Assembly: GCF_947487605.1 (NCBI RefSeq)
Contig: NZ_CANKXK010000011.1
Span: 47,759-111,758 of the forward strand
Direction of reading: 5' to 3'
Origin: an uncultured Algibacter sp.
GTDB lineage: Bacteria; Bacteroidota; Bacteroidia; Flavobacteriales; Flavobacteriaceae
DNA length: 64,000 bases
Below are positions 9,117-58,883 of this stretch, in pieces. The translations under genes and the position numbers were made by a program. Every line of letters starts with the position of its first letter. Position 1 is the stretch's first letter. The notes beneath the pieces are model-generated. The model saw only the letters and a program-made list of their open reading frames with translations, did no database searches and had not been told where the DNA came from.

Positions 9117-9130
9117 TTATTGTTAATACG

Positions 9131-10168: not shown

Positions 10169-10176
10169 TAATTTTG
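10169..10176 (+). promoter_or_regulatory. -7 box candidate (TAATTTTG) overlapping a single CTTGTGACTAATT unit
   Basis: Exact TAnnTTTG match 26 nt upstream of the ATG at 10202. Confidence 0.35.
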
Positions 10177-10201
10177 GTAAAATTGCTTATAGAATTAGAT
10201 T

Positions 10202-10597: not shown

Positions 10598-10604
10598 GGC
10601 TGCT

Positions 10605-11033
10605 TTAAATTTTCTTGAATTTCTGCCCGCAACCTTCTATACATTGATACCAGAGTATTAAATTTCCTGTTATTGGTAAATCAAAATAAACCTTAGCAGA
10701 ACGAGAAATACAAGTATTAGGTAATATTTCACCATCATTTTGTATATTATTATTAGTATCAGTGATTAACGTATAAGTTCCTGTTTCTACGTCACCAACT
10801 TCAGAAGACATAAAACACAATATGCCATTAGTTTCTACTGTTCCATCTTTAAAAAACTCGATTGTACGGTTACTATTTATAGGCTGAAAAGTTCCGCTAC
10901 CATCTCCTGGGTCAACAAGTTGTTCGATTAGTCTCCATTTTCCTATTAATTCCGTTTCACCAGAAGGTTTTGCATCATCTGATGAACAACATAGAAAAAC
11001 AATTGAAATAATAGTAATTATTAACTTTTTCAT
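10605..11033 (-). CDS. small lipoprotein (lipocalin-like?), function unknown
   Basis: 142 aa. Signal peptide with LCCSS lipobox. The GKWRL start is typical of lipocalin-like lipoproteins. Confidence 0.6.
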   Translation of the reverse strand: MKKLIITIISIVFLCCSSDDAKPSGETELIGKWRLIEQLVDPGDGSGTFQPINSNRTIEFFKDGTVETNGILCFMSSEVGDVETGTYTLITDTNNNIQNDGEILPNTCISRSAKVYFDLPITGNLILWYQCIEGCGQKFKKI

Positions 11034-11141
11034 TTTAACAAGACGTCTTTATCAATAGATGAATAAAACTAGAAATGGTTGCTCTTAAAACAGAAAAAAA
11101 ATGATTTTTATAAGTAAAATAAGATTCTTATGTCTTAATCT

Positions 11142-11276
11142 GGATAAGCGATTCACTCACTTTTTCTGAAATAGAAAAAGTGGTTCTAATAAATTTAATT
11201 TACATTTAAAAGATCCCGAGACTATGCTCGGGATAAGCGATTCACTCACTTTTTCTGAAATAGAAAAAGTGGTTCT
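11142..11276. repeat. two perfect 46-bp direct repeats (11142-11187 and 11231-11276), each containing a 10-bp-stem hairpin, separated by a 43-bp spacer that has its own hairpin
   Basis: GGATAAGCGATTCACTCACTTTTTCTGAAATAGAAAAAGTGGTTCT read twice. Internal stem CACTTTTTCT/AGAAAAAGTG. The spacer contains ATCCCGAG-N6-CTCGGGAT. Confidence 0.85.
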
Positions 11277-11280
11277 CTGC

Positions 11281-14200: not shown

Positions 14201-14718
14201 GCAGAAGAGATTACTCTGGCAATAGATTTTGGATTTTTTTTCTTCAACGCATCCAATTCAACATTAAATTGATTGCCTATAGCAAAATCTGATTTTTCTA
14301 CCAAATCATTAATCATACCTTGTAATCCCATTTCACGACCATCATCGGGCGAATAAATTCTACAAATCCCATAATCCATTAAATCCTTTATCTCTGATGG
14401 TAATATGACACCACCTCCACCTCCAAAAATCTTAATATGCTCTGAGCCTCTTTCTTTTAAAAGATCAAACATATACTTAAAATATTCGTTATGCCCACCT
14501 TGATATGAGGTTAAGCAAATAGCATTTACATCTTCTTGAATAGCTGTATTAACAACTTCCTCTACACTTCTATCATGCCCTAAATGGATTACCTCTACAC
14601 CAGTTGCCTGAATAATACGCCTCATAATATTAATTGAAGCATCATGTCCGTCAAAAAGAGATGTGGCTGTAACTATTCTAACTTTAAATTTTGGTTTATA
14701 AGGTGTTTGTTGTATCAT
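11281..14718 (-). CDS. icmF: fused isobutyryl-CoA mutase (B12-binding domain, MeaB-like G-protein and mutase catalytic domain)
   Basis: 1145 aa. N-terminal [14 protein letters not shown]12-binding motif, P-loop GTGGAGKSS, then a long methylmalonyl-CoA-mutase-like TIM-barrel region. This domain order is diagnostic of IcmF. Confidence 0.88.
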
Positions 14719-14766
14719 TCGTAATAAAAGTTGTTTTTAAGCGTTGTAATTTACGAAATATTTAAA

Positions 14767-14780
14767 AAATACATGTATTT
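14767..14780. promoter_or_regulatory. perfect 14-bp palindrome AAATACATGTATTT in the icmF/purU divergent region
   Basis: Read directly. Flanked by a looser outer inverted repeat GTTGTAAT ... ATTTACAAC. Confidence 0.35.
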
Positions 14781-14793
14781 ACAACTGAATATC

Positions 14794-14841
14794 TAAAATT
14801 AATCTAAATGAAAAATCATCTAAGTTTTTAGATTAATTTTA
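14794..14841 (+). promoter_or_regulatory. 15-bp perfect inverted repeat (TAAAATTAATCTAAA / TTTAGATTAATTTTA) with an 18-nt loop, just upstream of purU
   Basis: Read directly. Ends 23 nt before the purU ATG. Either a 5'-UTR stem-loop or an operator. Confidence 0.4.
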
Positions 14842-14864
14842 TGCGCTAAATAATTCAGAATTAA

Positions 14865-15719
14865 ATGAATAAAATAATCATACTCATTCATTGTAAAGAT
14901 AAACCAAATATTATTGCATCGGTAACTAATTTTGTTGCTGAAAAAGGCGGGAATATTGTATATCTAGATCAGCATGTCGATAGAGAGCAAGATGTTTTTT
15001 TCATGCGTTTGGAAAGCGAGTTTATTTCTGATGCTTTCTTGACCGAAGATTTTAAAAATGACTTTAAAGATATTTTAGCCGATAAGTTTGAAATGAAATG
15101 GCGCATCTATTCCTCAAAGAAAAAGCCAAAGATGGCACTATTTATTTCTAAATACGACCATTGTTTATACGATTTACTTGGTCGCTATAATTCTGGAGAA
15201 CTAAATTTAGAGATTCCCTTTATTATTAGTAATCATACTAATTTAAAATCGATTGCAGATAATTTTAAAATTCCGTTTTATCATATTCCCGTAACAAAAG
15301 ACACAAAAGACATTGCAGAAGAGAAGCAATTGGCTCTTTTAGAAGAATACAAAATAGATTTTATTGTTTTAGCAAGATACATGCAAATTATATCTAGTAA
15401 ATTAATTAGCAAGTATCCCAACAAAATAATAAACATTCATCATTCTTTTTTGCCTGCTTTTGTGGGTGCAAAACCCTATCATTCGGCTTACAAGCGTGGT
15501 GTTAAAATTATAGGAGCTACCAGTCACTATGTTACAGAAGAACTTGATGCTGGCCCAATTATTGAACAGGATGTTGCACACGTATCTCACACCTACTCTA
15601 TTAAAGATTTAATTGCTAAAGGGCGTGACCTTGAAAAAATTGTTTTAGCAAATGCTGTAAAACTTCATACCAACAGAAAAGTAATGACCTACAACAACAA
15701 AACCGTTATTTTTTCATAA
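14865..15719 (+). CDS. purU: formyltetrahydrofolate deformylase
   Basis: 284 aa. N-terminal ACT domain, C-terminal formyl-transferase domain with NIHHSFLPAF and GPIIEQDV blocks. Confidence 0.92.
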   Translation: MNKIIILIHCKDKPNIIASVTNFVAEKGGNIVYLDQHVDREQDVFFMRLESEFISDAFLTEDFKNDFKDILADKFEMKWRIYSSKKKPKMALFISKYDHCLYDLLGRYNSGELNLEIPFIISNHTNLKSIADNFKIPFYHIPVTKDTKDIAEEKQLALLEEYKIDFIVLARYMQIISSKLISKYPNKIINIHHSFLPAFVGAKPYHSAYKRGVKIIGATSHYVTEELDAGPIIEQDVAHVSHTYSIKDLIAKGRDLEKIVLANAVKLHTNRKVMTYNNKTVIFS

Positions 15720-36967: not shown

Positions 36968-39523
36968 TTATCCACACTTAGAAGACCCGCAATCTTTACA
37001 AGTTAAACAACCTTCTTGATAAATTAAATTTTCTGATTTACAATTGCTACACGTCTGTCCTTTAGCTTTAGTACCATCGGCAACATAACGTTTTAAAGCT
37101 CTTACCACACCATTCTTCCAAGTATTGATTGAAGCACTATCTAGTTGCAGACTATTAATTAAATCTACTATTTTATCTATTGGCATACCATGCCTTAAAG
37201 TACCAGATATTAGTTTGGCATAATTCCAAAATTCAGGATTAAATTTATGAGATAATCCTTCGATAGTTGTTTTATAACCTCTGGTATTTTTATATTGAAA
37301 ATCATACCGAGAACCTCCTTCTTCATTTCTATTTTTAATAATCAAACCATCATTAACCCAACGTGGTATTAAAATACCATCTTCATCATCAGCAAGTCCT
37401 GTAAATATTTCATAAGGCTTATCATCGACTAGCCCTACAAATGCAATCCATTTTTCTTTACTGTTTTGAAAACGCACAACATCGGCTTCTAAAACTTGAG
37501 GCCTTTTTTTAGGAAACACGGTTAAGATACGGTTAGAGTTATCCTTTTTTTCATCATCATTAGAAATTAAAACCCCAGAGCGCGAACCATCTCTATAAAC
37601 GGTAACACCTTTACATCCTACTTCCCAAGCTTTTAAATATAATTCACCTACTAAATCTTCGCTGGCATCATTAGGTAAATTAATAGTAACACTTATAGAA
37701 TGATCGACCCACTTTTGAATAGCTCCTTGCATACTTACCTTACTCATCCAATCAACATCATTTGATGTAGATCCGTAATAAGGTGATTTTTTTATAAGTA
37801 CATCTAACTCTTCCTGTGTGAAGTTTTTAGAGGCGTCTATACCATTCACTTCCATCCATTGTTTAAACCTATGGTGGAATACCACATATTCTTCCCAAGA
37901 ATCTCCAACGTCATCAACAAAATCAATACGTACATCTTTATCTCCTGGGTTTACCTTTCTTCTTCGCTTATAAACTGGCAAGAATACAGGTTCTATTCCC
38001 GACGTGGTTTGCGTCATTAAGCTAGTAGTTCCTGTTGGAGCAATGGTTAAAAGCGCAATATTACGTCTGCCATATTCTAACATTTCATAATACAACTTAC
38101 TATCAGCTTCTTTTAATCTATTTATAAACGGATTTTCTTTCTCTCTATCCGCATCAAAGATGTTAAACGCTCCGCGTTCTTTTGCTAATTGTACAGACGC
38201 TCTATATGCTTCAATTGCAATGGTTTTATGAACTTCTAAGGAAAAAGCATTACCTGCTTCACTTCCATACTGAATTCCTAAAGCAGCTAACATATCGCCT
38301 TCTGCAGTAATTCCTATACCAGTTCTTCTGCCTTGTTCTGCCTTTCTTTTAATGTTAATCCACAAATTACGTTCAATCGCTTTTACTTCATCTAACTCAG
38401 GATCGGAATCTATTTTTTCAAGAATCACATCTATCTTCTCTAATTCTAAATCAATAATATCATCCATTATTCTTTGCGCGTAAGACACATGCTTTTTGAA
38501 TAATTCAAAATTGAAAGATGCGTTATCTGCAAACGGGTTTTCTACATAAGAAAACAGATTAATGGCTAGCAAACGACATGAATCATAAGGACATAATGGA
38601 ATCTCTCCACAAGGGTTTGTAGATACTGTTTTATAACCTAAATCTGCATAACAATCTGGCACAGATTCATTAATAATAGTATCCCAAAACAGAATTCCAG
38701 GTTCGGCAGATTTCCAAGCATTATGCACTATTTTTTTCCAAAGTGCATTCGCATCGATAGGTTTTGAAACTTTAGGGTTAGCACTATATATGGGGTATTT
38801 TTGAATGTAACTGTTTTCGTTTTTAACAGCTTTCATAAAATCATCATCTATTCTAACCGACACATTAGCTCCAGTAACTTTTCCTTGCTCAAGTTTTGCA
38901 TTTATAAAGTCTTCAGAATCTGGATGATTAATTGAAACCGAAAGCATCAATGCTCCTCTACGTCCATCTTGTGCTACTTCTCGGGTAGAATTGGAATAGC
39001 GCTCCATAAACGGTACAATTCCAGTTGATGTTAGTGCAGAATTTTTAACCGCAGACCCTTTTGGACGTATATGTGACAAATCATGCCCTACACCTCCACG
39101 ACGCTTCATGAGTTGTACTTGCTCTTGATCGATTTTCATAATTCCTCCGTAAGAATCAGAGTTTTCAGAATTACCAATTACAAAACAATTAGAGAGTGAT
39201 GCAATTTGGAATGGATTGCCAATACCAGCCATAGGACTACCTTGCGGAACAATATACTTGAACTCTTTAATTAAATTGTATACCTCTTCCTCGGTTAGTT
39301 TATTAGCATATTTAGTTTCAACTCTCGCTATTTCTTTTGAAATTCGGCGGTGCATATCGTCTGGAGTAAGTTCGTAAAGATTACCGTCAGAATCTTTTAA
39401 AGTATATTTATTGAGCCAGACCCGAGCAGCTAAATCGTCGTTTTTGAAGTATTTTAATGAAGCTTCAAATGCTTCTTCATGAGTGAAAGTTTTGGTGAAT
39501 GATTGGGCAAGTTCGAGATTCAT
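36968..39523 (-). CDS. nrdJ: adenosylcobalamin-dependent (class II) ribonucleoside-diphosphate reductase
   Basis: 851 aa. Active-site block VSTNPCGEIPL, APTGTTSL, and a C-terminal Cys-rich tail CSNCKSENLIYQEGCLTCKDCGSSKC typical of monomeric-type NrdJ. Confidence 0.9.
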   Translation of the reverse strand: MNLELAQSFTKTFTHEEAFEASLKYFKNDDLAARVWLNKYTLKDSDGNLYELTPDDMHRRISKEIARVETKYANKLTEEEVYNLIKEFKYIVPQGSPMAGIGNPFQIASLSNCFVIGNSENSDSYGGIMKIDQEQVQLMKRRGGVGHDLSHIRPKGSAVKNSALTSTGIVPFMERYSNSTREVAQDGRRGALMLSVSINHPDSEDFINAKLEQGKVTGANVSVRIDDDFMKAVKNENSYIQKYPIYSANPKVSKPIDANALWKKIVHNAWKSAEPGILFWDTIINESVPDCYADLGYKTVSTNPCGEIPLCPYDSCRLLAINLFSYVENPFADNASFNFELFKKHVSYAQRIMDDIIDLELEKIDVILEKIDSDPELDEVKAIERNLWINIKRKAEQGRRTGIGITAEGDMLAALGIQYGSEAGNAFSLEVHKTIAIEAYRASVQLAKERGAFNIFDADREKENPFINRLKEADSKLYYEMLEYGRRNIALLTIAPTGTTSLMTQTTSGIEPVFLPVYKRRRKVNPGDKDVRIDFVDDVGDSWEEYVVFHHRFKQWMEVNGIDASKNFTQEELDVLIKKSPYYGSTSNDVDWMSKVSMQGAIQKWVDHSISVTINLPNDASEDLVGELYLKAWEVGCKGVTVYRDGSRSGVLISNDDEKKDNSNRILTVFPKKRPQVLEADVVRFQNSKEKWIAFVGLVDDKPYEIFTGLADDEDGILIPRWVNDGLIIKNRNEEGGSRYDFQYKNTRGYKTTIEGLSHKFNPEFWNYAKLISGTLRHGMPIDKIVDLINSLQLDSASINTWKNGVVRALKRYVADGTKAKGQTCSNCKSENLIYQEGCLTCKDCGSSKCG

Positions 39524-39601: not shown

Positions 39602-39615
39602 ATGACAAAAATCAT
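39602..39615. promoter_or_regulatory. CRP-like palindrome ATGACAAAAATCAT (core TGACAAAAATCA), site 1, upstream of nrdJ
   Basis: Identical 14-mer to 51907-51920 and 12-nt core identical to 57108-57119. Centre is about 85 nt upstream of the nrdJ start codon. Confidence 0.5.
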
Positions 39616-49739: not shown

Positions 49740-50213
49740 TTAAATAAATAGTAGCTGACAGCCTTCTTGATCTGCTCTACTATAAAAATCTCCTATGGTT
49801 AGTATGCCATCTAATTCATCAATTAAATCTTCATCTTTTAAATGAAACATATCTACCGCCAATTTACATGCCCAGAGCTTACAACCTGAGTCTGAAAGAA
49901 TTTCTAAAAACTCACCTACAGGTGGCATGTCTAATTTTTCCATTTCTTTTTTCATCATTTTTGTAGCTAAAGCTTCCATTCCTGGTAAACCGCCTAACAT
50001 GGTTGGTATGTGCATCCCTGGATTACCTACTGTGGCTACATGTAAATGTTCTAGCTTTTTCTTTTGAATAGCTTCCAGTCCAAAAAAAGTAAAAAATATT
50101 TCGGATTCTATCCCTTCCATTCTTGCACCGTTGGCCATTACAAATGCAGCATATGCATTTTCTATAGTTGCTTTTGATAAGATGAAAAGCATTTTTTTAA
50201 CTTTTGTGCCCAT
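49740..50213 (-). CDS. DsrE/DsrF/DrsH-like sulfur-relay family protein
   Basis: 157 aa. Rossmann-like DsrE fold pattern (LFILSKATIENAYAAFVMANGA) with conserved Cys in KLWACKLA. Last gene of the sqr operon. Confidence 0.75.
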   Translation of the reverse strand: MGTKVKKMLFILSKATIENAYAAFVMANGARMEGIESEIFFTFFGLEAIQKKKLEHLHVATVGNPGMHIPTMLGGLPGMEALATKMMKKEMEKLDMPPVGEFLEILSDSGCKLWACKLAVDMFHLKDEDLIDELDGILTIGDFYSRADQEGCQLLFI

Positions 50214-50251
50214 AATTATATGTTTTAAATTAGTCTTTCGTATTTATTAAA

Positions 50252-50560
50252 TTAAATACAACTTTTTGGTTTTGGTACACCAGCAATTTTAGTTGAAATT
50301 TTTAATGGCCCTTTAGGAAAGAGTGCATAGAATTCTTTGATGTCTAATACACCACTTTTTTTAATACCTCTAATAGATAAGGCTACGTCATTTTTTACTT
50401 GCTCTTGAAGCCAAGAAACCACTTCCCAATGCCTATCTGTCATTTCAATACCTTCATTCTTAGCTATCTCAAGTCCAATGTCTTTATTCCATTGAGATAC
50501 GTCTGTTAAATATCCGTCTTCCGTGACGTCTAATCTAATTCCTGCAATATTTAAATCCAT
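50252..50560 (-). CDS. TusE/DsrC/DsvC-family sulfur-relay protein (single C-terminal Cys, TusE type)
   Basis: 102 aa. GYL.D...W, HWEVV..LQ, and C-terminal GVPKPKSCI with the penultimate Cys. No second Cys 10 residues upstream. Confidence 0.8.
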   Translation of the reverse strand: MDLNIAGIRLDVTEDGYLTDVSQWNKDIGLEIAKNEGIEMTDRHWEVVSWLQEQVKNDVALSIRGIKKSGVLDIKEFYALFPKGPLKISTKIAGVPKPKSCI

Positions 50561-50577
50561 AATATTTAGTGTTTTAA

Positions 50578-51822
50578 TTAATTCCTTTTTATATCAAATA
50601 TTTTTCCTTTAAAACTCATATTCCTTGAAACAAATGGAATGGCAATACCTTTTAAAAGCATATTCCAATAAATCCATCTAAAAGCCAATTTTCCCCAGTG
50701 ATTAAAAATACTTTCTTTTAATAATTTTAGAGGTCCGATTTTTGGAAAAGGGAAAGTTCCATGTACTGGTTCTGTATTATAATTAAAATCAATAAGTAAA
50801 GCCTTGTTATTTCCGGTCTCTATAAAGCAGTTTGCATGTCCATCAAATTCTTCTTTTAAGGTATATCCTTTTATATATAAAAGAATGTTATCGGTTAAAG
50901 TTTCAGCTTGAAAGTGTGCTACAGATCCTGCTTTAGAAGCTGGCACATTGGTCGCATCACCAATTACAAATATGTTTTCGTGTTCTATAGATTGTAAGGT
51001 ATGCTTATGTGTTGGAATAAAGTTTAAATCATCTCCCAAACCAGAGCGTTCAATAAGCTCATCACCCATATTTGTGGGAACTGTTACTAATAAATCAAAC
51101 GGGATTGTTTTATCTCCGTAATCAACAATTTCTTTTTTTTCATTGTCTACTCTTTCTATTGCAAAATCAGCTTCCATATGGATTCCTTTTTCAGATAAAA
51201 GATAGCTTAATGATTTAGAGCAGGTAGGCTTTGTGAAAGCCCCAGACAAAGGCGTAACATAAGTAATTTCTACTTTATCTCTCATGCCTTTTTTAGTAAA
51301 ATAAGAATCAGCCAAAAACGCAAATTCTAAAGGTGCTACTGGGCATTTAATAGGCATTTCTGTTATGTGTATAACCAGTTTCCCACCATCCCATTCACGC
51401 AATTTATTTCGTAATGCTAAAGCACCTTCAAACGTGTAAAAATCGAATATATCTTTTTTCCATAGTGGTCCTAATAAACCTTCGGTTTCCTCTGGTACAA
51501 TTTTAGATCCTGTAGCAATAATTAATAGGTCATAATCTAAGGTTTCATCCTCAAGAACGACTTGATTATCTACTGGTAAAATTTTATCTATTTTTTTTTG
51601 AATATAATTAACGCCTTTGGGAATAAACTTTTTACCAACTTTTTTTACTTGATCTTCTGTATAGGTATCAAATGGAAGAAATAAAAACCCTGGTTGATAA
51701 TAATGTGTTTTATATTGATCGATAATTGTAATGCTCCAATCTTTTTTTGGGAGTTTAGAAACCAAATGATTTGCCATCATAGTTCCAGAAGTTCCAGCCC
51801 CTAATATTATTAAATTTTTCAT
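50578..51822 (-). CDS. sqr: sulfide:quinone oxidoreductase-like FAD-dependent pyridine nucleotide-disulfide oxidoreductase
   Basis: 414 aa. GAGTSGT dinucleotide fold. Candidate redox Cys in IKCPVAPLEF (C160) and HANCFIE (C332). VIGDATN. Amphipathic C-terminal tail. Confidence 0.75.
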   Translation of the reverse strand: MKNLIILGAGTSGTMMANHLVSKLPKKDWSITIIDQYKTHYYQPGFLFLPFDTYTEDQVKKVGKKFIPKGVNYIQKKIDKILPVDNQVVLEDETLDYDLLIIATGSKIVPEETEGLLGPLWKKDIFDFYTFEGALALRNKLREWDGGKLVIHITEMPIKCPVAPLEFAFLADSYFTKKGMRDKVEITYVTPLSGAFTKPTCSKSLSYLLSEKGIHMEADFAIERVDNEKKEIVDYGDKTIPFDLLVTVPTNMGDELIERSGLGDDLNFIPTHKHTLQSIEHENIFVIGDATNVPASKAGSVAHFQAETLTDNILLYIKGYTLKEEFDGHANCFIETGNNKALLIDFNYNTEPVHGTFPFPKIGPLKLLKESIFNHWGKLAFRWIYWNMLLKGIAIPFVSRNMSFKGKIFDIKRN

Positions 51823-51906
51823 TTTATTTAATTTTAAACTTCCTATTAAAATTTCTAGAGTAGTTTATTTCTTTGGTAAAAGTAAACGAATTAGCATATA
51901 AATAAT

Positions 51907-51920
51907 ATGACAAAAATCAT
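51907..51920. promoter_or_regulatory. CRP-like palindrome ATGACAAAAATCAT, site 2, upstream of sqr
   Basis: Same 14-mer as site 1. Its centre lies 29.5 nt from a minus-strand near-consensus -7 box TACTTTTA (51884-51877), the same geometry as site 3. Confidence 0.5.
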
Positions 51921-51930
51921 GTAAACCCTT

Positions 51931-51948
51931 GTGTAACAAAGGTTACAC
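51931..51948. promoter_or_regulatory. perfect palindrome GTGTAAC-AAAG-GTTACAC
   Basis: Read directly. 10 nt from site 2. GTAAC-N4-GTTAC recurs at 54386-54399. Confidence 0.45.
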
Positions 51949-51991
51949 GGGTAATAAAATAACAATGACCCTCAAAATAAAATATAAAAAG

Positions 51992-52003
51992 TGATAATTA
52001 TCA
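51992..52003. promoter_or_regulatory. perfect 12-bp palindrome TGATAATTATCA (Fur-box-like half-sites)
   Basis: Read directly. Sits 24-35 nt upstream of the candidate -7 box of the FadL-like gene, in the -33 zone. Confidence 0.3.
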
Positions 52004-52026
52004 TAGTTAAAGATACCTTCTAAAAG

Positions 52027-52034
52027 TAGCTTTG
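52027..52034 (+). promoter_or_regulatory. -7 box candidate (TAGCTTTG) for the FadL-like gene
   Basis: Exact TAnnTTTG match 84 nt upstream of the ATG at 52118. Confidence 0.3.
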
Positions 52035-52117
52035 TTTAAATATTAGAAACAATAACATCTTGTAAAAAGAACTAAAAGACAACTATTTTTTTACGATGTT
52101 CTTAAATACTTTTTATT

Positions 52118-53521
52118 ATGAAAACTAAACTAATAAACCTATTATTACTATTATTTTTTTCGCCAGTAGCTTTTTCGCAAGCTGGTCACATTATGCAAGG
52201 TGCAGGAGCCGTAAACATGTCTATGGGGGGAGCTTCAACAGCACAACCACTAGATATTTCTGGAGCTTTACATTGGAACCCTGCTGCCATATCTGCTTTT
52301 AACGACAAAATTATAAAGCTTGATGTTGGTTTATTCTTTTCTTCTCCAGAATTAAGTTCTGGTTTACCTGCTAATATTCTATGGCAACCAGGAGATTTTG
52401 GCCCTGGTTCTCCTGGTGCTCCTCCAGTCTCTGGAATAACTAAAGATGATAGAGGTATGTCTCCAATGCCTGCTTTAGCCATGCTTTGGGGAAAAGAAGA
52501 TAGCAAACATACTTTTGGTGTTTCTGCTTTTGGCATTAGTGGCTTTGGTGTAACATTTCCACAAGACAATAATGCTCCTGTAGACTCACAAGGTAATCCA
52601 AACCCAAATTTTAACCCTATAGGTAATTCTAATCCCATTAATTACCCACAAGCCGCACAGGGGTTTGGACATATAGAATCTGATTACATGTTATTACAAG
52701 TAGGATTATCTTATGCTTATGAAATAACCGATAAGTTCTCTATTGGTATTCAGCCAAATATAGATTATGCTGCATTAGAACTAGCACCTAATCCAACTGC
52801 AAAACCTAATATGTTTGGATATCCAAACACAGATAGTGCAACAGCTATTGGTTTTGGTGCTCAATTTGGAGTGTTCTATGATTCAGGATTAGGATTAAAA
52901 CTAGGAGCATCCTATAAAACAGCACAAAAATTTAGTGAATTTGAATTCGATAATACATATCCAGACAATACCACTGCTAAAAATAAATTCCAAATGGATT
53001 ATCCTGCTATTTTCTCTCTTGGATTGGGATATTCACAAGGAGATATTGATTTAGCGCTAGATTTTAGACGTGTTGATTATGAAAATACAGATGGTTTTGC
53101 TGAAACAGGTTGGACAATAGATCAAAACATGTTACCTTCTGTAGCTGGATTTGGGTGGGAGAATATATCCATTATCTCTGCAGGGTTACAGTATAAAGGC
53201 ATTGCTAAATTACCTCTTCGTTTTGGCTATACTTACAGTTCTAACCCTATTCCAGAGGATATTGCGTTTTTTAATGTTCCTGCCACAGCAATTATTAAAA
53301 ATGCTTACCAATTTGGTTTAAGTTATAAGGTAAATAAAACTTGGAACATTGATGCCGTTTACCATTATGGAGATAGTAACGGAGCGACCGAAGGTCCATT
53401 ATTAAACCCTCGTAATATTTCTTCAGGAAATCCTACAGGAGCTGTTTCAGGGTCGTTTGTATCTTACGATATGACAACCTCAATGATACAATTTGGTATT
53501 AGTTATACATTTAACAAATAA
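52118..53521 (+). CDS. OMPP1/FadL/TodX-family outer-membrane transport protein
   Basis: 467 aa. Signal peptide. N-terminal GAGAVNMSMGGASTA hatch-like segment, alternating beta-strands, terminal YTF. Confidence 0.75.
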   Translation: MKTKLINLLLLLFFSPVAFSQAGHIMQGAGAVNMSMGGASTAQPLDISGALHWNPAAISAFNDKIIKLDVGLFFSSPELSSGLPANILWQPGDFGPGSPGAPPVSGITKDDRGMSPMPALAMLWGKEDSKHTFGVSAFGISGFGVTFPQDNNAPVDSQGNPNPNFNPIGNSNPINYPQAAQGFGHIESDYMLLQVGLSYAYEITDKFSIGIQPNIDYAALELAPNPTAKPNMFGYPNTDSATAIGFGAQFGVFYDSGLGLKLGASYKTAQKFSEFEFDNTYPDNTTAKNKFQMDYPAIFSLGLGYSQGDIDLALDFRRVDYENTDGFAETGWTIDQNMLPSVAGFGWENISIISAGLQYKGIAKLPLRFGYTYSSNPIPEDIAFFNVPATAIIKNAYQFGLSYKVNKTWNIDAVYHYGDSNGATEGPLLNPRNISSGNPTGAVSGSFVSYDMTTSMIQFGISYTFNK

Positions 53522-53538
53522 ATTTATTATCCCAAAAT

Positions 53539-53578
53539 AATAACCCCATAAACTGTAATTAATGTTTATGGGGTTATT
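53539..53578 (+). terminator. 15-bp-stem hairpin after the FadL-like gene
   Basis: AATAACCCCATAAAC (53539-53553) pairs with GTTTATGGGGTTATT (53564-53578). No clean T-run. Confidence 0.5.
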
Positions 53579-53596
53579 AAATAATTTAGATAAAAA

Positions 53597-53729
53597 GAGG
53601 CTGTTTAAAAAGTAAGTTCGATATCATATTGAGCTTGTCGAAATATTTTTAACTTATACTGATAATCAATATCAGTTTCGACAGGCTCAACCTAACAAAT
53701 CAAACTATAAAGACTTTTTAGACAGCCTC
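53597..53729. repeat. nested-hairpin intergenic repeat, copy 2
   Basis: About 90 percent identical to 1871-2002, with the same outer and inner inverted repeats. Again lies between convergent genes. Confidence 0.85.
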
Positions 53730-53868
53730 TTAACAATCAATCAAAAAACAAAGCGCCTTTATCTCCTTCAATTAATTAAAAACAAGCAAAAGACATATGT
53801 TACTTTAATCGACCAACCAACCATGCTATTAATCAGTTAACAAATACATTTTTTTTATTTTAATATCA

Positions 53869-54354
53869 TTAGTTTATTATCTCTTTTCTTAGTAAGAACC
53901 CTTTCTTTCTTTGCTCGTTATAATGTTTATCAAACCAATCTGGTTTCTCTATATCATTATCATATATATAATCTGAAATTTGTTTTAACTTTTCCTCAGA
54001 AACTTCAAGCTTGGGCATTAATCCAAATCTTTTCACAGCACCATACATTTTTGCATTAGCTTCTGTTGGATTTTCAAACCAAGCATAGATATCGTTAATA
54101 AAATCTTCTTTATTTGTTCCCTCTAAGATATATCGTTTTTTTACTGCTATCATTGGTGGCGCTAATCTTTCATCATGACTTGCAGTTGCGCTATGGCATA
54201 TATTACATTGGTTCTCCATAAGCTTTTTACCAGGATGTATTTCTTGATTATTATGCTGTACAAAAGGCGGGTATTTTTTTGTCTTCTGGCAACTAACTAC
54301 AAACACCAAAGCGGTTAATAAGATAAGAGGTTTCATAAATTTTGTATTATACAA
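53869..54354 (-). CDS. monohaem c-type cytochrome lipoprotein
   Basis: 161 aa. Lipobox VVSC. Haem-binding CNICH. Candidate axial Met in LAPPM. The start may be M7 at 54336. Confidence 0.75.
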   Translation of the reverse strand: MYNTKFMKPLILLTALVFVVSCQKTKKYPPFVQHNNQEIHPGKKLMENQCNICHSATASHDERLAPPMIAVKKRYILEGTNKEDFINDIYAWFENPTEANAKMYGAVKRFGLMPKLEVSEEKLKQISDYIYDNDIEKPDWFDKHYNEQRKKGFLLRKEIIN

Positions 54355-54385
54355 TCAAAGATACCAACTCATAATAAAATTTAAC

Positions 54386-54399
54386 GTAACCTAAGTTAC
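54386..54399. promoter_or_regulatory. palindrome GTAAC-CTAA-GTTAC upstream of the cytochrome c gene
   Basis: Read directly. Same half-sites and spacing as 51931-51948. Lies 32-45 nt upstream of the annotated start. Confidence 0.4.
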
Positions 54400-54463
54400 A
54401 GATGGATTATTAACATTTAAAAAGTCGAAACTTTACACGATAAATTTTACAAAATAATGGAAA

Positions 54464-54505
54464 TAAAAAAAGACCTTAATATTCATAAAAAGAATATTAA
54501 AGTCT
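54464..54505 (-). terminator. intrinsic terminator of tRNA-Arg
   Basis: 14-bp stem (54471-54484 / 54492-54505, one mismatch), followed on the minus strand by a T-run (A-run 54464-54470 on plus). Confidence 0.7.
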
Positions 54506-54512
54506 TTGTCTG

Positions 54513-54586
54513 TGACCACGGCAGGATTCAAACCTGCAACCTCTTGAGCCGTAATCAAGTGCGCTATTCAGTTGCGCCACGTGGCC
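54513..54586 (-). tRNA. tRNA-Arg (anticodon ACG)
   Basis: Hand-folded cloverleaf: acceptor GGCCACG/CGTGGTC, D-stem GCGC/GCGC, anticodon stem CTTGA/TCAAG with loop TTACGGC, T-arm GCAGG-TTTGAAT-CCTGC, discriminator A. CCA is not encoded. Confidence 0.9.
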
Positions 54587-54669
54587 GTTTTTAATGGGTG
54601 CAAATATACTATTAATTAAAACTTTAACAAACAATTTATTTCAAATTTATAAATCCGTATTTTTGAACC

Positions 54670-55299
54670 ATGACTAATGAAATATTACATCAAAAATTTA
54701 ATCATACCCTCGATAGCAATCTTTTAAATGAAATTGCAAATGTTGGTACGTATAAATCTTTTTTAAAAGATGATATAATTATAGATATTGATCAACCATT
54801 AGAAAATATACCACTCTTATTAAGTGGCCATATTAAAATACTAAGAGAAGATGACCAAGGAAATGATTTACTTATTTATTTCTTAGAAGCTGGTGAAACT
54901 TGCACCATGTCACTTACTTGCTGTATGGGGACATCAAAAAGTAAAATAAGAGCCGTTGCAGAGCAAGATTCTAGCCTCGTTATGATACCTGTACAAAAGA
55001 TGCAAGAATGGTTTCATAATAATGAGAGTTGGCGTAACTTTATTTTGAGTAGTTATCAGATTCGTTTTGATGAAATGCTTGATGCTATTGATAGTATTGC
55101 GTTTTTAAAAATGGATGAGCGTTTACACAAATACCTAGTCAACAAAACGGTACTAAATAGCTCTAATACTATTTTAATGAAGCACCAAGATATTGCTGAA
55201 GATTTACATACTTCTCGAGTTGTTATATCAAGACTTCTTAAGCAACTTGAAAACGAGAATAAAATAAATCTTGGCAGAAATAAAATCGTGGTTTTATAA
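54670..55299 (+). CDS. Crp/Fnr-family transcriptional regulator with a three-Cys cluster in the effector domain
   Basis: 209 aa. cNMP-binding-like beta-barrel and C-terminal HTH (HQDIAEDLHTSRVVISRLLKQL). Its only cysteines are C78, C84 and C85 (GETCTMSLTCCMG). Confidence 0.88.
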   Translation: MTNEILHQKFNHTLDSNLLNEIANVGTYKSFLKDDIIIDIDQPLENIPLLLSGHIKILREDDQGNDLLIYFLEAGETCTMSLTCCMGTSKSKIRAVAEQDSSLVMIPVQKMQEWFHNNESWRNFILSSYQIRFDEMLDAIDSIAFLKMDERLHKYLVNKTVLNSSNTILMKHQDIAEDLHTSRVVISRLLKQLENENKINLGRNKIVVL

Positions 55300-55343
55300 A
55301 CTTATTCATCTAAAACTTAACAAGATATTTAGACTAAACTATT

Positions 55344-55892
55344 ATGGAATACATATTAAACCCTTGGCCGTGGTATATATCTGGCCCATTAATAGCCATT
55401 ATAATGGCCTTGCTTTTATATTTTGGAAAAACCTTTGGCATGTCTTCTAATTTAAGTACGATGTGTACCATTTTGGGTGCTGGAAAGCGCATAAATTTTT
55501 TTAAAATGAACTGGAAAGATCAATCTTGGAACATAACTGTTGTTATTGGTGCCATTATTGGAGGTTTCATAGCTACCCAATATTTAAGCAATAATAGTAT
55601 TACTAATCTAAATTCTACTACGATTACAGAACTACAACAAATGGGATTTAAAAACTCAGGGGTTTCCTTAGTTCCAGATGAAATATTTAAGTTAAGTTCA
55701 ATAAAAGAATTACTAATCTTAATAACTGGAGGTCTACTTGTTGGGTTTGGAACACGGTATGCTGGCGGATGCACCTCTGGCCACGCTATTTCTGGCCTTA
55801 GCAGTTTACAAAAACCATCGCTTATTGCAGTTATTGGATTCTTTATTGGTGGCCTAATTATGACTAATATTATTTTACCTCTAATATTTTAA
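55344..55892 (+). CDS. YeeE/YedE-family sulfur-compound transporter, first half-type subunit
   Basis: 182 aa. TM helices. RYAGGCTSGH signature. Confidence 0.8.
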   Translation: MEYILNPWPWYISGPLIAIIMALLLYFGKTFGMSSNLSTMCTILGAGKRINFFKMNWKDQSWNITVVIGAIIGGFIATQYLSNNSITNLNSTTITELQQMGFKNSGVSLVPDEIFKLSSIKELLILITGGLLVGFGTRYAGGCTSGHAISGLSSLQKPSLIAVIGFFIGGLIMTNIILPLIF

Positions 55893-55894
55893 AT

Positions 55895-56308
55895 ATGAAA
55901 TACTTAAAATTTTTGCTTGTTGGTGTTTTCTTTGGAATTATACTAGTTAAATCTGAAGCTGTTTCTTGGTATAGAATTTATGAGATGTTTAGATTTCAAT
56001 CTTTCCACATGTATGGTATTATAAGCACTGCAATTGTGAGTGGTATTTTATTTTTACAGTTTTCAAAAAGAGGTTATATTAAAAGTATAAAAGGAGCCAA
56101 TATTTTTGTCCCTAAAAAAGAAAAAGGTATTACAAGATACTTCGTTGGAGGCATTATTTTTGGTCTAGGATGGGCATTAATAGGCACATGTCCTGGTCCC
56201 ATGTATATATTATTAGGCACAGGTGTTTTTAGCATGTTTATTGTAATTGCTGCTGCCATATTGGGCACTTTTATATATGGCGTCTTAAAAAACAAACTCC
56301 CTCATTAA
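55895..56308 (+). CDS. YeeE/YedE-like membrane protein, second half-type subunit (DUF6691-like)
   Basis: 137 aa. Four TM helices. LIGTCPG motif. 2-nt gap after the previous gene. Confidence 0.7.
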   Translation: MKYLKFLLVGVFFGIILVKSEAVSWYRIYEMFRFQSFHMYGIISTAIVSGILFLQFSKRGYIKSIKGANIFVPKKEKGITRYFVGGIIFGLGWALIGTCPGPMYILLGTGVFSMFIVIAAAILGTFIYGVLKNKLPH

Positions 56309-57100
56309 ATGGATAACACCCAACTATTTGGATATATTGGTGCGTTAATAGTAGGATTAGTACTAGGATTAATTGGAGGAGGCGGATCCATCTTAACAGT
56401 GCCTATATTGGTGTACTTACTAGGCTATAATCCAATAGTTGCTACTGCCTATTCTCTATTTGTTGTTGGCACTACATCCATGGTTGGCACGTTTCAGAAA
56501 TACAAAAAAGGGTTGGTAGACTTTAAAACGGGTTTTGCTTTTTCTTTTCCATCGTTTATAGCAGTTTATCTTTCGCGAAGATATTTGGTACCTAATATTC
56601 CTGATAGACTTTTTAATATTGATGATTTTACATTTACTAAAGAAATGGGAATTATGATCTTTTTTGCAATCATAATGATTATAGCGTCCTATTCTATGAT
56701 TAAAAATAAAACAGACAATAGTTCACTAAAAGAAAAGCAAGCATATTACAAAACTTTTATTCAAGCAATAGTTATAGGAACAATTACAGGATTTATAGGC
56801 GCAGGAGGTGGATTTTTATATGTACCAGCACTTGTAATTTGGGCAAATATTCCAATGAAAAAAGCAGTTGGCACATCATTAATAATAGTTACCATCAACT
56901 CATTAATTGGTTTTATTGGCGATATTCAAACCTTAGAGATAGATTGGGTATTCCTTTTATCGTTTACACTAATATCTATAGTTGGCATTATTTTGGGTGT
57001 ATTTCTGTCAAAATTTATTAGTGGTAAAAAACTTAAAAAAAGTTTTGGATTTTTCACTTTAATAATGGCTGTTTATATTATATATAAAGAAACCAATTAA
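56309..57100 (+). CDS. TauE/SafE-family sulfite/organosulfonate exporter
   Basis: 263 aa. Two internal repeats with GGGGSILTVP and GAGGGFLYVP motifs. Confidence 0.85.
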   Translation: MDNTQLFGYIGALIVGLVLGLIGGGGSILTVPILVYLLGYNPIVATAYSLFVVGTTSMVGTFQKYKKGLVDFKTGFAFSFPSFIAVYLSRRYLVPNIPDRLFNIDDFTFTKEMGIMIFFAIIMIIASYSMIKNKTDNSSLKEKQAYYKTFIQAIVIGTITGFIGAGGGFLYVPALVIWANIPMKKAVGTSLIIVTINSLIGFIGDIQTLEIDWVFLLSFTLISIVGIILGVFLSKFISGKKLKKSFGFFTLIMAVYIIYKETN

Positions 57101-57105
57101 AGTAA

Positions 57106-57121
57106 TGTGACAAAAATCACA
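57106..57121. promoter_or_regulatory. perfect CRP-consensus palindrome TGTGA-CAAAAA-TCACA, site 3, upstream of the cstB-like gene
   Basis: Read directly. Its centre lies 29.5 nt upstream of the first base of the -7 box at 57143, which would put it near -42 of the inferred start site (a class II activator position). Confidence 0.55.
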
Positions 57122-57142
57122 AATCAACCCAATATGATTTAT

Positions 57143-57150
57143 TATTTTTG
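57143..57150 (+). promoter_or_regulatory. -7 box candidate (TATTTTTG) for the cstB-like gene
   Basis: Exact TAnnTTTG match 18 nt upstream of the ATG at 57168. Confidence 0.4.
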
Positions 57151-57167
57151 AATGATACTTTTTTAAA

Positions 57168-58580
57168 ATGAAAATAGAGCAAATATATACAGGCTGTTTA
57201 GCACAAGGTGCTTATTACATAGAATCTAATGGAGAAGTTGCGATAATTGATCCGCTTCGTGAAACCCAACAATATGTAGATAAAGCCAATAGAGAAAATG
57301 CAAAAATTAAATATATTTTTGAAACACATTTTCATGCCGATTTTGTTTCTGGTCACGTAGATTTAGCAAAAAAAACTGGTGCTATAATTGTTTATGGGCC
57401 AGGGGCAGAAACCAATTACGATATACATTGTGCTAAGGATGAAGAAAAATTTAAATTAGGAAATATTACTATAAAAGTTTTACACACACCGGGACATACA
57501 TTAGAGTCTTCTACTTACCTATTAATTGATAAATCTGGAAAAGATTATGCTATTTTTTCTGGAGACACTTTGTTTTTAGGCGATGTTGGAAGGCCCGATT
57601 TAGCCATAAAGTCTGACCTAACAAAAGAAGATTTAGCAGGAATGCTCTACGATTCGCTTAGGAATAAAATAATGCCATTAGCAGACGATGTTATTGTTTA
57701 TCCCGCTCATGGTGCTGGTTCTGCATGCGGAAAAAATTTGAGCAAAGAAACCATTGGAATTTTAGGTGATGAGAAAAAAACAAATTACGCATTAAGAGCA
57801 GATATGACCAAAGCAGAATTTATTGAAGAAGTTCTTGATGGCATAGCGCCACCACCACAGTATTTTGCAAAAAATGCGATGATGAATAAATCTGGGTATG
57901 ATACTTTTGAAACAGTTTTAAAAAAGGGAGACAATGCGTTAACCCCTGAAGCCTTTGAACATTTAGCAAACGAAGGAAATGCTTTAGTGCTGGATGTAAG
58001 ACATGAAAAAGATTTTATAAAGGGCCATATTCCAAACTCCATTTTTATTGGCATCCATGGTGGGTTTGCACCTTGGGTAGGTGCTTTAATTACAGACTTA
58101 AAACAACCTATTTTATTAGTAGCTCCAGAAGGTAAAGCAAAAGAAACTGTTACTAGATTATCTCGTGTAGGGTATGATAACACACTTGGCTATTTAGAAG
58201 GCGGTATTGAAGCTTGGGTAGCTTCTGGAAGAGATATAGAAACTTTAGACTCTATTTCGGTTAACACCTTTAAGAATGTGTTTAAGGACAAAAGCATTCA
58301 TGTTTTAGATGTTAGAAAAGATGGTGAATACAAATCGGAACATTTAGATGGAAATTCTGTGCAGCACTTTGCTTTAGATTATATAAATGATAACATGAAT
58401 AAAATTGATGTAAGGAAAACATATTACATTCATTGTGCAGGTGGTTATCGATCTGTAATTGCAGCTTCTATACTTAAAGCTCGTGGCTTTAAGAACTTAA
58501 TAGATGTCGCAGGTGGTTTTGGAGCCATGAAAAAAACAGATTTACCAACTACAGAGTTTGTTTGCCCTTCAACTTTATAA
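57168..58580 (+). CDS. CstB-like persulfide dioxygenase (MBL fold) fused to a pseudo-rhodanese and an active rhodanese domain
   Basis: 470 aa. THFHADFVSGH metal motif. The middle rhodanese-like domain lacks a catalytic Cys. The C-terminal domain has HCAGGYRS. Confidence 0.82.
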   Translation: MKIEQIYTGCLAQGAYYIESNGEVAIIDPLRETQQYVDKANRENAKIKYIFETHFHADFVSGHVDLAKKTGAIIVYGPGAETNYDIHCAKDEEKFKLGNITIKVLHTPGHTLESSTYLLIDKSGKDYAIFSGDTLFLGDVGRPDLAIKSDLTKEDLAGMLYDSLRNKIMPLADDVIVYPAHGAGSACGKNLSKETIGILGDEKKTNYALRADMTKAEFIEEVLDGIAPPPQYFAKNAMMNKSGYDTFETVLKKGDNALTPEAFEHLANEGNALVLDVRHEKDFIKGHIPNSIFIGIHGGFAPWVGALITDLKQPILLVAPEGKAKETVTRLSRVGYDNTLGYLEGGIEAWVASGRDIETLDSISVNTFKNVFKDKSIHVLDVRKDGEYKSEHLDGNSVQHFALDYINDNMNKIDVRKTYYIHCAGGYRSVIAASILKARGFKNLIDVAGGFGAMKKTDLPTTEFVCPSTL

Positions 58581-58616
58581 GTAATTTTTGATATCAAGTT
58601 GATAAAGAAATATAAA

Positions 58617-58883
58617 ATGAAAACAACTTTAGAAATACAAAACCTAAAATGTTCTGGTTGTGCTAATACCATTACCAAAAAGGTTTCTAGTTTAGAAGGT
58701 ATCACAGAATTAAAGGTTTATACAGACACTAACACTTTATCTTTTCAATATGAAAACGAAGCTACTGCAGATAAAGTAAAAGAGCTTCTTTCTATTATTG
58801 GATACCCTGTTGTAGGAGAAAAAAATGCATTAACAACTAAAGCAAAGTCTTTTGTAAGTTGCGCAATTGGGAGAATAAAATAA
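58617..58883 (+). CDS. heavy-metal-associated (HMA) domain protein
   Basis: ORF track 58599..58883. I prefer M7 (MKTTLEIQNLKCSGCANTI...). Ferredoxin-like HMA fold with a CSGC motif plus an extra C-terminal Cys (SFVSCAIG). Confidence 0.7.
   Translation: MKTTLEIQNLKCSGCANTITKKVSSLEGITELKVYTDTNTLSFQYENEATADKVKELLSIIGYPVVGEKNALTTKAKSFVSCAIGRIK

Follow-up and report, generated by a model that had tools for sequence, protein, structure and literature searches.

We analyzed a window of 64 kb (the whole stretch of DNA under study) from an uncultured Algibacter sp. of the Flavobacteriaceae, and focused on the region between positions 49740 and 58883, where a regulator of the Crp/Fnr family lies among genes predicted to act in the detoxification of sulfide and sulfane sulfur. 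Members of this family play a major part in the degradation of algal and particulate organic matter and live at oxic-sulfidic interfaces. The known dedicated sensors of reactive sulfur are of the CsoR, ArsR, and Fis types. The eleven protein genes and the embedded tRNA gene described in an initial annotation of the window were recovered in place (list of open reading frames (ORFs), ARAGORN), and no further ORF of at least 60 aa was found within the region. It is flanked by housekeeping or unrelated genes, blaI-blaR1-like on one side and clpS, prmA, and tpiA on the other. Proteins were assigned by profile searches with Pfam and NCBIfam, and the tRNA by ARAGORN and Rfam. Two of them, the regulator and the sulfide:quinone oxidoreductase described below, match NCBI proteins from an uncultured Algibacter sp. 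with 100% identity.

The regulator gene (54670-55299, plus strand) encodes a bona fide member of the Crp/Fnr family, with both the beta-roll and the HTH_Crp domains (PF00027, 35 bits; PF13545, 32 bits; both above cutoff). It is followed on the same strand by a YeeE/YedE transporter split in two genes: a C-terminal-type half with a GGCTSGH motif (55344-55892; PF04143, positions 165-327 of the 330 in the TsuA model) and an N-terminal-type half of the DUF6691 kind (55895-56308; PF20398 and PF04143, positions 5-115 of 330). Next come an anion exporter of the TauE/SafE family (56309-57100, plus strand; PF01925, 152 bits) and a CstB-type persulfide dioxygenase made of a metallo-beta-lactamase (MBL) domain, a pseudo-rhodanese, and a rhodanese (57168-58580, plus strand; PF00753 and two PF00581). 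The latter aligns over its full length to PDB entries 3tp9 (7e-64) and 3r2u (1e-56). It keeps the H-x-H-x-D metal motif (ETHFHADF), the cysteine of HGAGSACGK, and the cysteine of the C-terminal rhodanese (YIHCAGGYRS), while the middle rhodanese-like domain has no active-site cysteine. This end-to-end match and the conserved rhodanese cysteine show that the protein is not a plain glyoxalase II. The last gene on this side encodes a small cytoplasmic HMA protein resembling CopZ, with a CSGC motif (start at 58599 or 58617, end at 58883, plus strand; PF00403, 39.6 bits).

On the other side, three genes on the minus strand form an operon. The first encodes a type III sulfide:quinone oxidoreductase (SQR) in its cysteine form (50578-51822; NF049943, 648 bits for a cutoff of 525). 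Human SQOR is its best solved relative (1e-43), and both catalytic cysteines are kept (PIKCPVAP, GHANCF), which identifies this 414-aa flavoprotein as an SQR and not as an NDH-2. The best-matching NCBIfam model takes its name from a selenoprotein subtype of this SQR type, and the gene of the window lacks an in-frame TGA. The second gene (50252-50560) encodes a protein of the DsrC family (PF04358, 91 bits; TIGR03342, 80.8 bits for a cutoff of 53.5). Its C-terminus, ..PKPKSCI (KIAGVPKPKSCI), has one cysteine and no second cysteine 11 residues upstream. As the CysB-x10-CysA pair is absent and only the C-terminal cysteine is present, the protein is TusE-like rather than DsrC proper, although it scores far under the TusE equivalog cutoff (65.7 vs 191 bits). 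The last gene of the operon (49740-50213) encodes a DsrE2-like sulfur-carrier protein (PF13686 DrsE_2, 113 bits), which scores 101 bits against the DsrE2 model NF047629, under the equivalog cutoff.

Divergent from sqr lies the gene of an outer-membrane channel of the FadL/Toluene_X type (52118-53521, plus strand; PF03349, 58.6 bits for a cutoff of 29.7). It is followed on the minus strand by a lipoprotein c-type cytochrome (53869-54354; PF00034, 22.4 bits for a cutoff of 21.3) with a CNICH haem motif and the lipobox LVFVVSC, whose true start is probably the ATG at 54336, and by a tRNA-Arg(ACG) (54512-54586, minus strand). Between fadL and the cytochrome c gene we observed a near-perfect long hairpin (53595-53731; RNA fold of -53 kcal/mol, z = -10.6), whose core (TTGAGCTTGTCGAAA and its inverted partner) recurs some 52 kb away, at 1903-1963. 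It looks like a repeated palindromic element of the REP or MITE type; Rfam, searched over the stretch, matched only the tRNA.

All functional assignments of the initial annotation held in the profile searches, and we regard the gene functions given here as highly probable. The region thus appears to encode a heterotroph-type set for sulfide and sulfane-sulfur detoxification, whose enzymes are ordinary members of known families, and the pathway that had been proposed (SQR, persulfide dioxygenase, and rhodanese) stands by homology of the genes. No CsoR, ArsR, or sigma54-activator domain was found by profile searches among the ORFs of at least 60 aa between 49.1 and 58.9 kb, in line with the earlier statement that regulators of the CstR, SqrR/BigR, and FisR types are missing. 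The multidomain sulfurtransferase CstA also has no gene in the region, where free-standing proteins of the DsrC/TusE and DsrE2 families are found.

We studied the promoters of the region together with those of its relatives. These are 80 loci (referred to by L numbers) around orthologs of the regulator (72-86% identity) in the clade of Algibacter, Seonamhaeicola, Flavivirga, Tamlana, and Hyunsoonleella. They come from a scan of one genome per species with very specific back-translated patterns, which retrieve close relatives only, and their gene order was established by tblastn. More distant genera were covered by a profile search and contig look-ups. Among the tauE-cstB intergenic regions, 75 of 77 carry a 16-bp palindrome, TGTrAy-N4-rTyACA, with at least 10 of its 12 specified positions; 48 match all 12 positions and 22 more match 11, and the flanking sequence diverges. 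A weight matrix built from these cstB-promoter sites, used with a threshold of 12 bits, found only three sites in the 64 kb (at 51930, 54383, and 57104), all in intergenic parts of the region, for an expected number of 0.75 in composition-preserving shuffles. A weak match at 19415 falls within an ORF, and we took it to have arisen by chance. The three operators, which we call sulfur-type, are TGTGACAAAAATCACA before cstB (57106-57121, 23.1 bits), CGTAACCTAAGTTACA 31 bp before the ORF of cytochrome c (54385-54400, 14.3 bits), and TGTAACAAAGGTTACA, a perfect 6-4-6 palindrome, in the divergent sqr/fadL region (51932-51947, 13.2 bits). In the 1.5 Mb of related loci that we scanned there are 164 sites of at least 12 bits, including 74 before cstB and 59 between crp and yeeE.

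The position of the palindrome relative to the promoter is almost constant. The first base of TAnnTTTG, which we take to be the -7 element of Bacteroidetes, follows the dyad centre at a distance of 29 nt in 61 of 63 cstB promoters and 28 of 35 yeeE promoters. Both the cstB and the cytochrome c promoters of the window fit this spacing. The former has its -7 box, TATTTTTG, at 57143-57150, and in the latter the operator centre is 29.5 nt from a -7 box on the minus strand (CAAAGATA on the plus strand, 54356-54363). If the -7 box spans about -12 to -5, the dyad falls near -41.5. The -33 TTTG element is absent from these promoters and the right half-site stands in its place. An operator centred near -41.5 that replaces the -33 element points to class II promoters that depend on an activator, and comparative genomics makes the adjacent Crp/Fnr protein a likely candidate for that activator and for the local regulator of these genes. 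We also observed that the spacer between tRNA-Arg and crp (54587-54672) is highly conserved among genera and contains a -7 box, TATTTTTG, that ends 4 nt before the ATG of crp, so that the mRNA of crp may be leaderless or nearly so.

The intergenic region of sqr and fadL carries a second class of sites. An FNR-type box, ATGACAAAAATCAT, lies in the sqr promoter (51907-51920), and its pattern, ATGAy-N4-rTCAT, which matches the FNR core TGAT-N4-ATCA, is kept in six sqr promoters from four genera. In five of the six loci it is 29 nt from a TAnnTTTA box (manual count). A sulfur-type site also precedes sqr in all six loci, namely the window, L001, L020, Mariniflexile L081, and the Lutibacter-type L082 and L083; it scores 17-20 bits in the latter five. 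In these promoters the sulfur-type site is 22-28 bp upstream of the FNR-type box, which starts 7-13 bp after it. The fadL promoter has its own FNR-type box, TGATAATTATCA (51992-52003), centred 29.5 nt upstream of a -7 box, TAGCTTTG, at 52027. The exact FNR-type pattern has two matches in the stretch where 0.28 were expected. The presence of this box at both sqr and fadL suggests that a second factor of the Crp/Fnr type, plausibly oxygen-responsive, acts on both. A protein that could play this role, FNR-like with an N-terminal cysteine cluster, is encoded beside nrfAH in L081 and is distinct from the regulator described here. The initial annotation had tied the two sides of the region by shared palindromes. 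The link is real, given the operators at 51932, 54385, and 57106, but the palindromes belong to two classes, sulfur-type and FNR-type. One exact 12-mer, TGACAAAAATCA, occurs at 39603, 51908, and 57108, and we rejected it as a single shared operator: the copy at 57108 belongs to the sulfur-type site there, while those at 39603 and 51908 have no matrix score and fall in the class ATGAy-N4-rTCAT. The 14-mer ATGACAAAAATCAT is also found at 39602-39615, about 80 bp upstream of the gene for the large subunit of ribonucleotide reductase (36968-39523, minus strand), with no clean spacing to a -7-like box. This copy suggests a second regulon of the Crp/Fnr type, possibly oxygen-responsive.

Gene order in the relatives shows which parts of the region belong together. 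The series crp-yeeE-yeeE-tauE-cstB is complete in 75 of the 80 loci, with clpS-prmA-tpiA coming after it, which makes the right arm a conserved chromosomal core. Only two loci, those of Hyunsoonleella aestuarii and Algibacter mikhailovii, have the sqr-tusE-dsrE2 genes within 10 kb of the regulator. We found fadL in five loci and the cytochrome c gene in three; in Seonamhaeicola L004-L006 the latter is directly upstream of crp. Within the sqr arm the order is stable, as every sqr locus examined has the operon sqr-dsrC-like-dsrE2 (L001, L020, L081-L083), and the divergent pairing of sqr with fadL recurs in Mariniflexile L081, L001, and L020. The tRNA-Arg is about 85 bp upstream of crp in around 18 of the 25 relatives checked, and farther off or absent in a few. 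Its 3' side is a variable slot that holds, depending on the genome, the sqr arm, a module with a pump of the resistance-nodulation-division (RND) type, or unrelated glycoside hydrolases. The modules of this slot in L004-L006, L021, L030, and L052 encode a ferritin-like DUF2202 protein, a cytochrome b-like DUF4405 protein, an OEP-HlyD-AcrB RND pump, and a YgaP-like transmembrane protein, and they bear the sulfur-type operator. The sqr arm would thus be an accessory module in a variable slot beside tRNA-Arg, part of the same regulon and not of a fixed island. Hence, the claim that the two arms form a conserved island was not borne out: what is seen here is the chance adjacency of a core operon pair and an accessory module, both members of one regulon.

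We also rejected the idea of a genomic island integrated at the tRNA gene. There is no integrase among the ORFs and no second copy of the tRNA 3' segment, and the GC content (0.27-0.36) has no step. Homologs of the SQR with 83-93% identity are widespread and occur in many assemblies, and we noted that the genomes with the nearest of them (90-93%) are not those whose regulators are most similar, so that the sqr module may have moved laterally. The HMA gene, which had been counted in the right arm, adjoins cstB in 48 loci, but it was found in only 52 of the 80 and is sometimes split off by an SOS mutagenesis cassette, lexA-imuB-dnaE2. Such cassettes separate cstB from hma in L002, L006, L016, L020, and L033 (at about 14.1-19.2 kb of each locus); Pfam searches established their content in L002 and L020, and it was deduced from the size of the gap in the other three. 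The insertions of 5-6.5 kb between cstB and hma were considered as hidden sulfur genes, and this was rejected in view of the cassettes. HMA is linked to the set only loosely.

The most constant neighbor of the regulator is TauE, including in genera outside the clade. In a Flavobacterium sp. the regulator is followed by tauE-cstB with operators present, in Altibacter by tauE alone, and in Salegentibacter by tauE, a methyltransferase of the ICMT/PEMT type, cydAB, and MBL genes, with the operator TTGTAACCCTTGTTACTG before tauE. In the Mariniflexile and Lutibacter-type loci (L081-L083) the palindrome lies 100-130 bp upstream of sqr (17.7-19.5 bits) and also before a PhsA-like operon (22.1 bits) and rhodanese genes. 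The regulator homolog of L082 and L083 has 44% identity to that of the window, an identical recognition helix (TSRVVxSRLLK), and cysteines at 78 and 85. The shared palindromes thus appear to define a family-wide sulfur regulon that extends beyond the two arms of the region.

Two of these contexts have further contents of their own. The Salegentibacter genes (L084, Salegentibacter salegens, 9001-15551; L087, 9630-10094) include TehB-like methyltransferases besides the regulator, tauE, the ICMT/PEMT-type methyltransferase, cydAB, and MBL-fold genes. The ICMT/PEMT family presumably includes the H2S/methanethiol S-methyltransferase MddA, and the gene set is suggestive of a sulfide-tolerance response. 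Beside sqr-dsrC-dsrE2 in Mariniflexile aquimaris and Lutibacter (L081, 12195-21245; L082, 1-7007; L083, 1-7042) we found a molybdoenzyme resembling PhsA, along with its Fer4 and NrfD subunits, as well as a second split YeeE and four rhodaneses. A porin of the ExtI type and a multihaem cytochrome of the ExtM type are also encoded there. This cluster may be a module for the respiration of polysulfide or thiosulfate (or of selenite or tellurite) under the same operator.

The distribution of the operator bears on whether the adjacent Crp/Fnr protein is its ligand at all. The sites could be bound by another regulator encoded elsewhere, with the neighboring gene having a different role. The core GTAAC-N4-GTTAC has also been predicted as a motif for regulators of the HcpR2 type in Bacteroides and Clostridia, flavobacteria have many Crp/Fnr paralogs (at least 7949 candidates at E <= 1e-10), and the sqr arm is adjacent in just two of the 80 loci. 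Yet an operator-bearing promoter directly follows the regulator gene both in distant genera and in the majority of the 80 loci. In the sulfur clusters of Lutibacter, moreover, operator-bearing genes stand beside a homolog of the regulator whose recognition helix is the same, and no hcp gene is nearby. We therefore consider a merely coincidental adjacency to be very unlikely, and retain the adjacent Crp/Fnr protein as the probable local activator.

We then turned to the protein itself. The regulator subfamily was delimited by an exhaustive search of cluster representatives, which gave 172 clusters (50% identity, E <= 1e-30), and residues were counted in 140 full-length representatives. On this comparison, the regulator appears to belong to a distinct subfamily of Crp/Fnr proteins. 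Its only cysteines are C78, C84, and C85, none of which is N-terminal. The initial annotation had described them as a C-x5-CC cluster, which is true of this protein and of its close relatives, where the three are invariant; the subfamily as a whole keeps Cys78 (138 of 140 representatives) and usually one of the other two (C84 in 73, C85 in 77, at least one of both in 97). The structural model made with AlphaFold2 (AF2) from 67 sequences has a mean pLDDT of 89.6; with only 25 close sequences, the pLDDT was below 50 over residues 60-85. In the former, C78 is placed just after the strand 66-73 and the pair G75-E76, and C84 and C85 are in a short helix (82-85). By manual comparison with CRP, the loop and helix with the three cysteines would correspond to the phosphate-binding cassette of the cyclic-nucleotide pocket. 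A Foldseek search of the model against the PDB had CAP, NtcA, and 3dv8 as best matches, and returned generic CRP, NtcA, and FNR folds with no hint of an effector. The closest solved structure, 3dv8, is an uncharacterized structural-genomics target with cysteines aligned to C78 and C84.

These features are relevant to two other ways in which the regulator might sense. It could control the same genes but take its signal from oxygen or the redox state, and not from reactive sulfur, by means of a cofactor bound at the cysteines: an Fe-S cluster of the FNR kind, or a haem with a Cys ligand, as in proteins of the CooA type. Three clustered cysteines in a Crp/Fnr-family protein invite this view, a single near-invariant Cys78 would suit a haem thiolate ligand, and control by oxygen would be sensible for a persulfide dioxygenase that requires O2 and an SQR that feeds the quinone pool. 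The regulator has no N-terminal C-x2-C-x5-C cluster, however, and subfamily members have one to three of these cysteines, a single one in 41 of the 140 representatives, too few for an Fe-S site. Besides, CooA and FNR are not close by sequence, and the separate FNR-type box and the FNR-like protein of L081 already explain an oxygen control of sqr. We judge a cofactor-based sensor to be unlikely.

Alternatively, the regulator could bind thiosulfate, sulfite, or a nucleotide non-covalently in its pocket, where the cysteines would merely line the walls. The framework G-E...(K/R)-S of the cassette is kept (G75 and E76; S91 in 125 of 140 representatives), reversible ligands are common among Crp/Fnr proteins, and the closest neighbors are YeeE, for thiosulfate import, and TauE, for sulfite export. 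The cassette is nevertheless four residues longer than that of CRP (manual alignment), and a near-invariant cysteine at position 78, instead of a polar or charged residue, suggests chemistry over shape, which makes a non-covalent ligand improbable. The reading that we prefer is that the regulator senses sulfane sulfur through its cysteines. It is motivated by two features, a reactive cysteine in the predicted effector pocket and a regulon that comprises SQR, persulfide dioxygenase, rhodaneses, and transporters of sulfur anions, and we favor it tentatively, at slightly less than even chances.

The content of the regulon also raises the question of whether sulfur is its theme. The regulator could respond to a thiophilic metal, a metalloid, or a chalcogen oxyanion (Cu, Cd, Hg, As, selenite, tellurite) within a broader stress regulon. 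The HMA protein at the end of the right arm would fit such a role, as would the operator-bearing RND modules of the relatives, the ExtM-like cytochrome, ExtI-like porin, and TehB-like methyltransferases found nearby, the selenoprotein subtype in the name of the SQR model, the relatedness of YeeE to YedE, and the three cysteines, an arrangement that we take to be typical of As(III) and Hg sensors. Yet the RND pump is of the multidrug type and not CusA/CzcA (483 vs 264 bits), and we rejected the idea that the regulon centers on heavy-metal efflux. The loose linkage of HMA also speaks against a metal sensor, as do the constancy of TauE, YeeE, and CstB as partners of the regulator and the operator borne by sqr wherever it was examined. 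Sensing of metals or chalcogens is thus an improbable alternative to the sensing of sulfane sulfur.

The model that we propose for the region may be described as follows. By homology, the type III SQR would oxidize sulfide to enzyme-bound sulfane sulfur, which would pass to the TusE-like and DsrE2-like carriers. The CstB-type persulfide dioxygenase-rhodanese would convert persulfides to sulfite and thiosulfate, and sulfur anions would cross the inner membrane through TauE and the split YeeE, as expected from their families. The FadL-type channel and the c-type cytochrome lipoprotein would serve the envelope side. The adjacent Crp/Fnr protein would bind TGTrAy-N4-rTyACA and act as a class II activator at cstB, at cytochrome c, and, in the relatives, at yeeE. 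At sqr the FNR-type box would occupy -41.5, and sqr and fadL would integrate a second signal, probably related to oxygen. The signal of the regulator would be sulfane sulfur, as persulfide or polysulfide, which would modify Cys78 and bridge it to Cys84 or Cys85, and this modification within a pocket of the cyclic-nucleotide type would mimic the activation normally induced by a ligand. The regulon would be modular and include cstB, tauE, yeeE, sqr-tusE-dsrE2, PhsA-like reductases, rhodaneses, and possibly cytochrome bd and S-methyltransferases. The chances that this model holds as a whole seem to us somewhat better than even, as judged from sequence comparisons.

Several observations weigh against this model or parts of it. 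The spacer between crp and yeeE is 44 bp long in the window (55300-55343) and has neither operator nor -7 box. Both are kept in L001-L003, L008, L009, L016, L018, and most other relatives, including the closest, so that this lineage appears to have lost the regulated transcription of yeeE-tauE, and since the spacer lost operator and promoter, yeeE-yeeE-tauE are probably read through from crp. The transcription start used to place the operators is deduced from the -7 consensus of Bacteroidetes. At sqr the spacing of the operator varies (22-28 bp), which leaves its mode of action there unclear. The 80 loci share one clade and are not independent. As to the signal, 41 of the 140 representatives keep Cys78 only and a bridge between two cysteines is thus not universal, and the proposed effector is drawn from the content of the regulon and the conserved cysteines. 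Finally, the regulon of the relatives includes an RND efflux pump, DUF2202, and DUF4405, with ExtM/ExtI-like and TehB-like genes nearby, which are not obviously specific to sulfide.

If the model is true, the regulator would represent a new class of bacterial sulfur sensor, built on a scaffold not used for this purpose in the known dedicated sensors, in which the reactive cysteine sits in a pocket of the cyclic-nucleotide type. The operator and its promoter would be a ready-made pair for sulfide biosensors in Bacteroidetes, and sulfur regulons could be predicted in marine genomes from sequence alone. How heterotrophic sulfide oxidation is controlled in Bacteroidota can now be tested directly on one protein, its three cysteines, and a DNA site of 16 bp.

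Among known systems, the closest analogue of the region is the cst locus of Staphylococcus aureus (cstR, tauE, cstA, cstB, sqr). The parallel, already drawn in the initial annotation, is upheld: both group TauE, a CstB-type enzyme, and an SQR with a dedicated regulator, and both are associated with the detoxification of sulfide and persulfide, which is a prediction in our case. The two differ in several respects. The regulator is a predicted activator of the Crp/Fnr type here and a CsoR-like repressor there, the SQR is of type III here and of type II there, and CstA is replaced by free TusE-like and DsrE2-like proteins, so that neither CstR nor CstA has a counterpart by family. A split YeeE, a channel of the FadL type, and a cytochrome c are additional components of the region, and its sqr module is only occasionally adjacent to the rest. 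Type III SQR has been described in Caldivirga maquilingensis and is abundant in metagenome-assembled genomes of Flavobacteriales, with no study of its regulation (PMC8443593). The SQR of the window passes the family cutoff and has the canonical cysteine pair. In contrast to the described enzymes, it belongs to a conserved three-gene operon with the TusE-like and DsrE2-like genes, under a predicted dual control by factors of the Crp/Fnr type; we found no description of this operon arrangement in the open-access literature.

The logic of control resembles that of other sulfur-responsive systems in part. In Cupriavidus pinatubonensis, the pdo-sqr operon is activated by FisR, and the region shares with it the use (proposed here) of a dedicated activator, not a repressor, for genes of sulfide oxidation. 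FisR is a sigma54-dependent enhancer-binding protein, whereas we predict a Crp/Fnr dimer in a class II position at a Bacteroidetes promoter of the sigmaA type. The ArsR-type regulators SqrR and BigR sense through cysteines, as we propose here, and control regulons with sqr, a fusion of persulfide dioxygenase and rhodanese, and TauE/YeeE transporters, but they differ in fold, DNA motif, and logic (repression there, predicted activation here), and their cysteines are in a winged-helix dimer and not in a pocket of the cyclic-nucleotide type. As a class II activator, the regulator would resemble CRP and FNR of Escherichia coli: it would bind as a dimer to a 16-bp palindrome whose half-sites are similar to TGTGA, the dyad would lie near -41.5, and the upstream promoter element is weak or missing. 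Unlike them, it has no cAMP-type cassette and no N-terminal Fe-S cysteines, is predicted to work with a TAnnTTTG promoter, and has a valine at the position of CRP residue 181. This residue is Val in the clade of the window and Glu in most of the subfamily. It also separates the regulator from HcpR2, for which a nearly identical operator core, GTAACnnnnGTTAC (GTAAC-N4-GTTAC), was predicted, with Pro at CRP-181 and a constant association with hcp (Rodionov et al. 2005, PMC1274295). The genes predicted to be controlled here are sulfur genes, and no hcp was found in the stretch or in the loci examined.

The only dedicated sensors of reactive sulfur named in a 2026 review are proteins of the CsoR, ArsR, and Fis types, with OxyR, PerR, MarR-type proteins, LasR, and AdpA as secondary ones. 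Our searches of the open-access literature turned up no account of a Crp/Fnr protein that senses reactive sulfur or of this cluster in Flavobacteria, and no publication characterizing the architecture of the region, which agrees with the initial annotation. Relative to these systems, the regulator and its operator are a well-supported and apparently undescribed variant of sulfide-response control. We see it as possible, at a little under even chances, that the Cys78 subfamily of Crp/Fnr proteins represents a fourth structural class of dedicated reactive-sulfur sensors, a class II activator modified at its cysteines that would govern a modular sulfur regulon in Flavobacteriaceae, with an FNR-type oxygen signal added at sqr.

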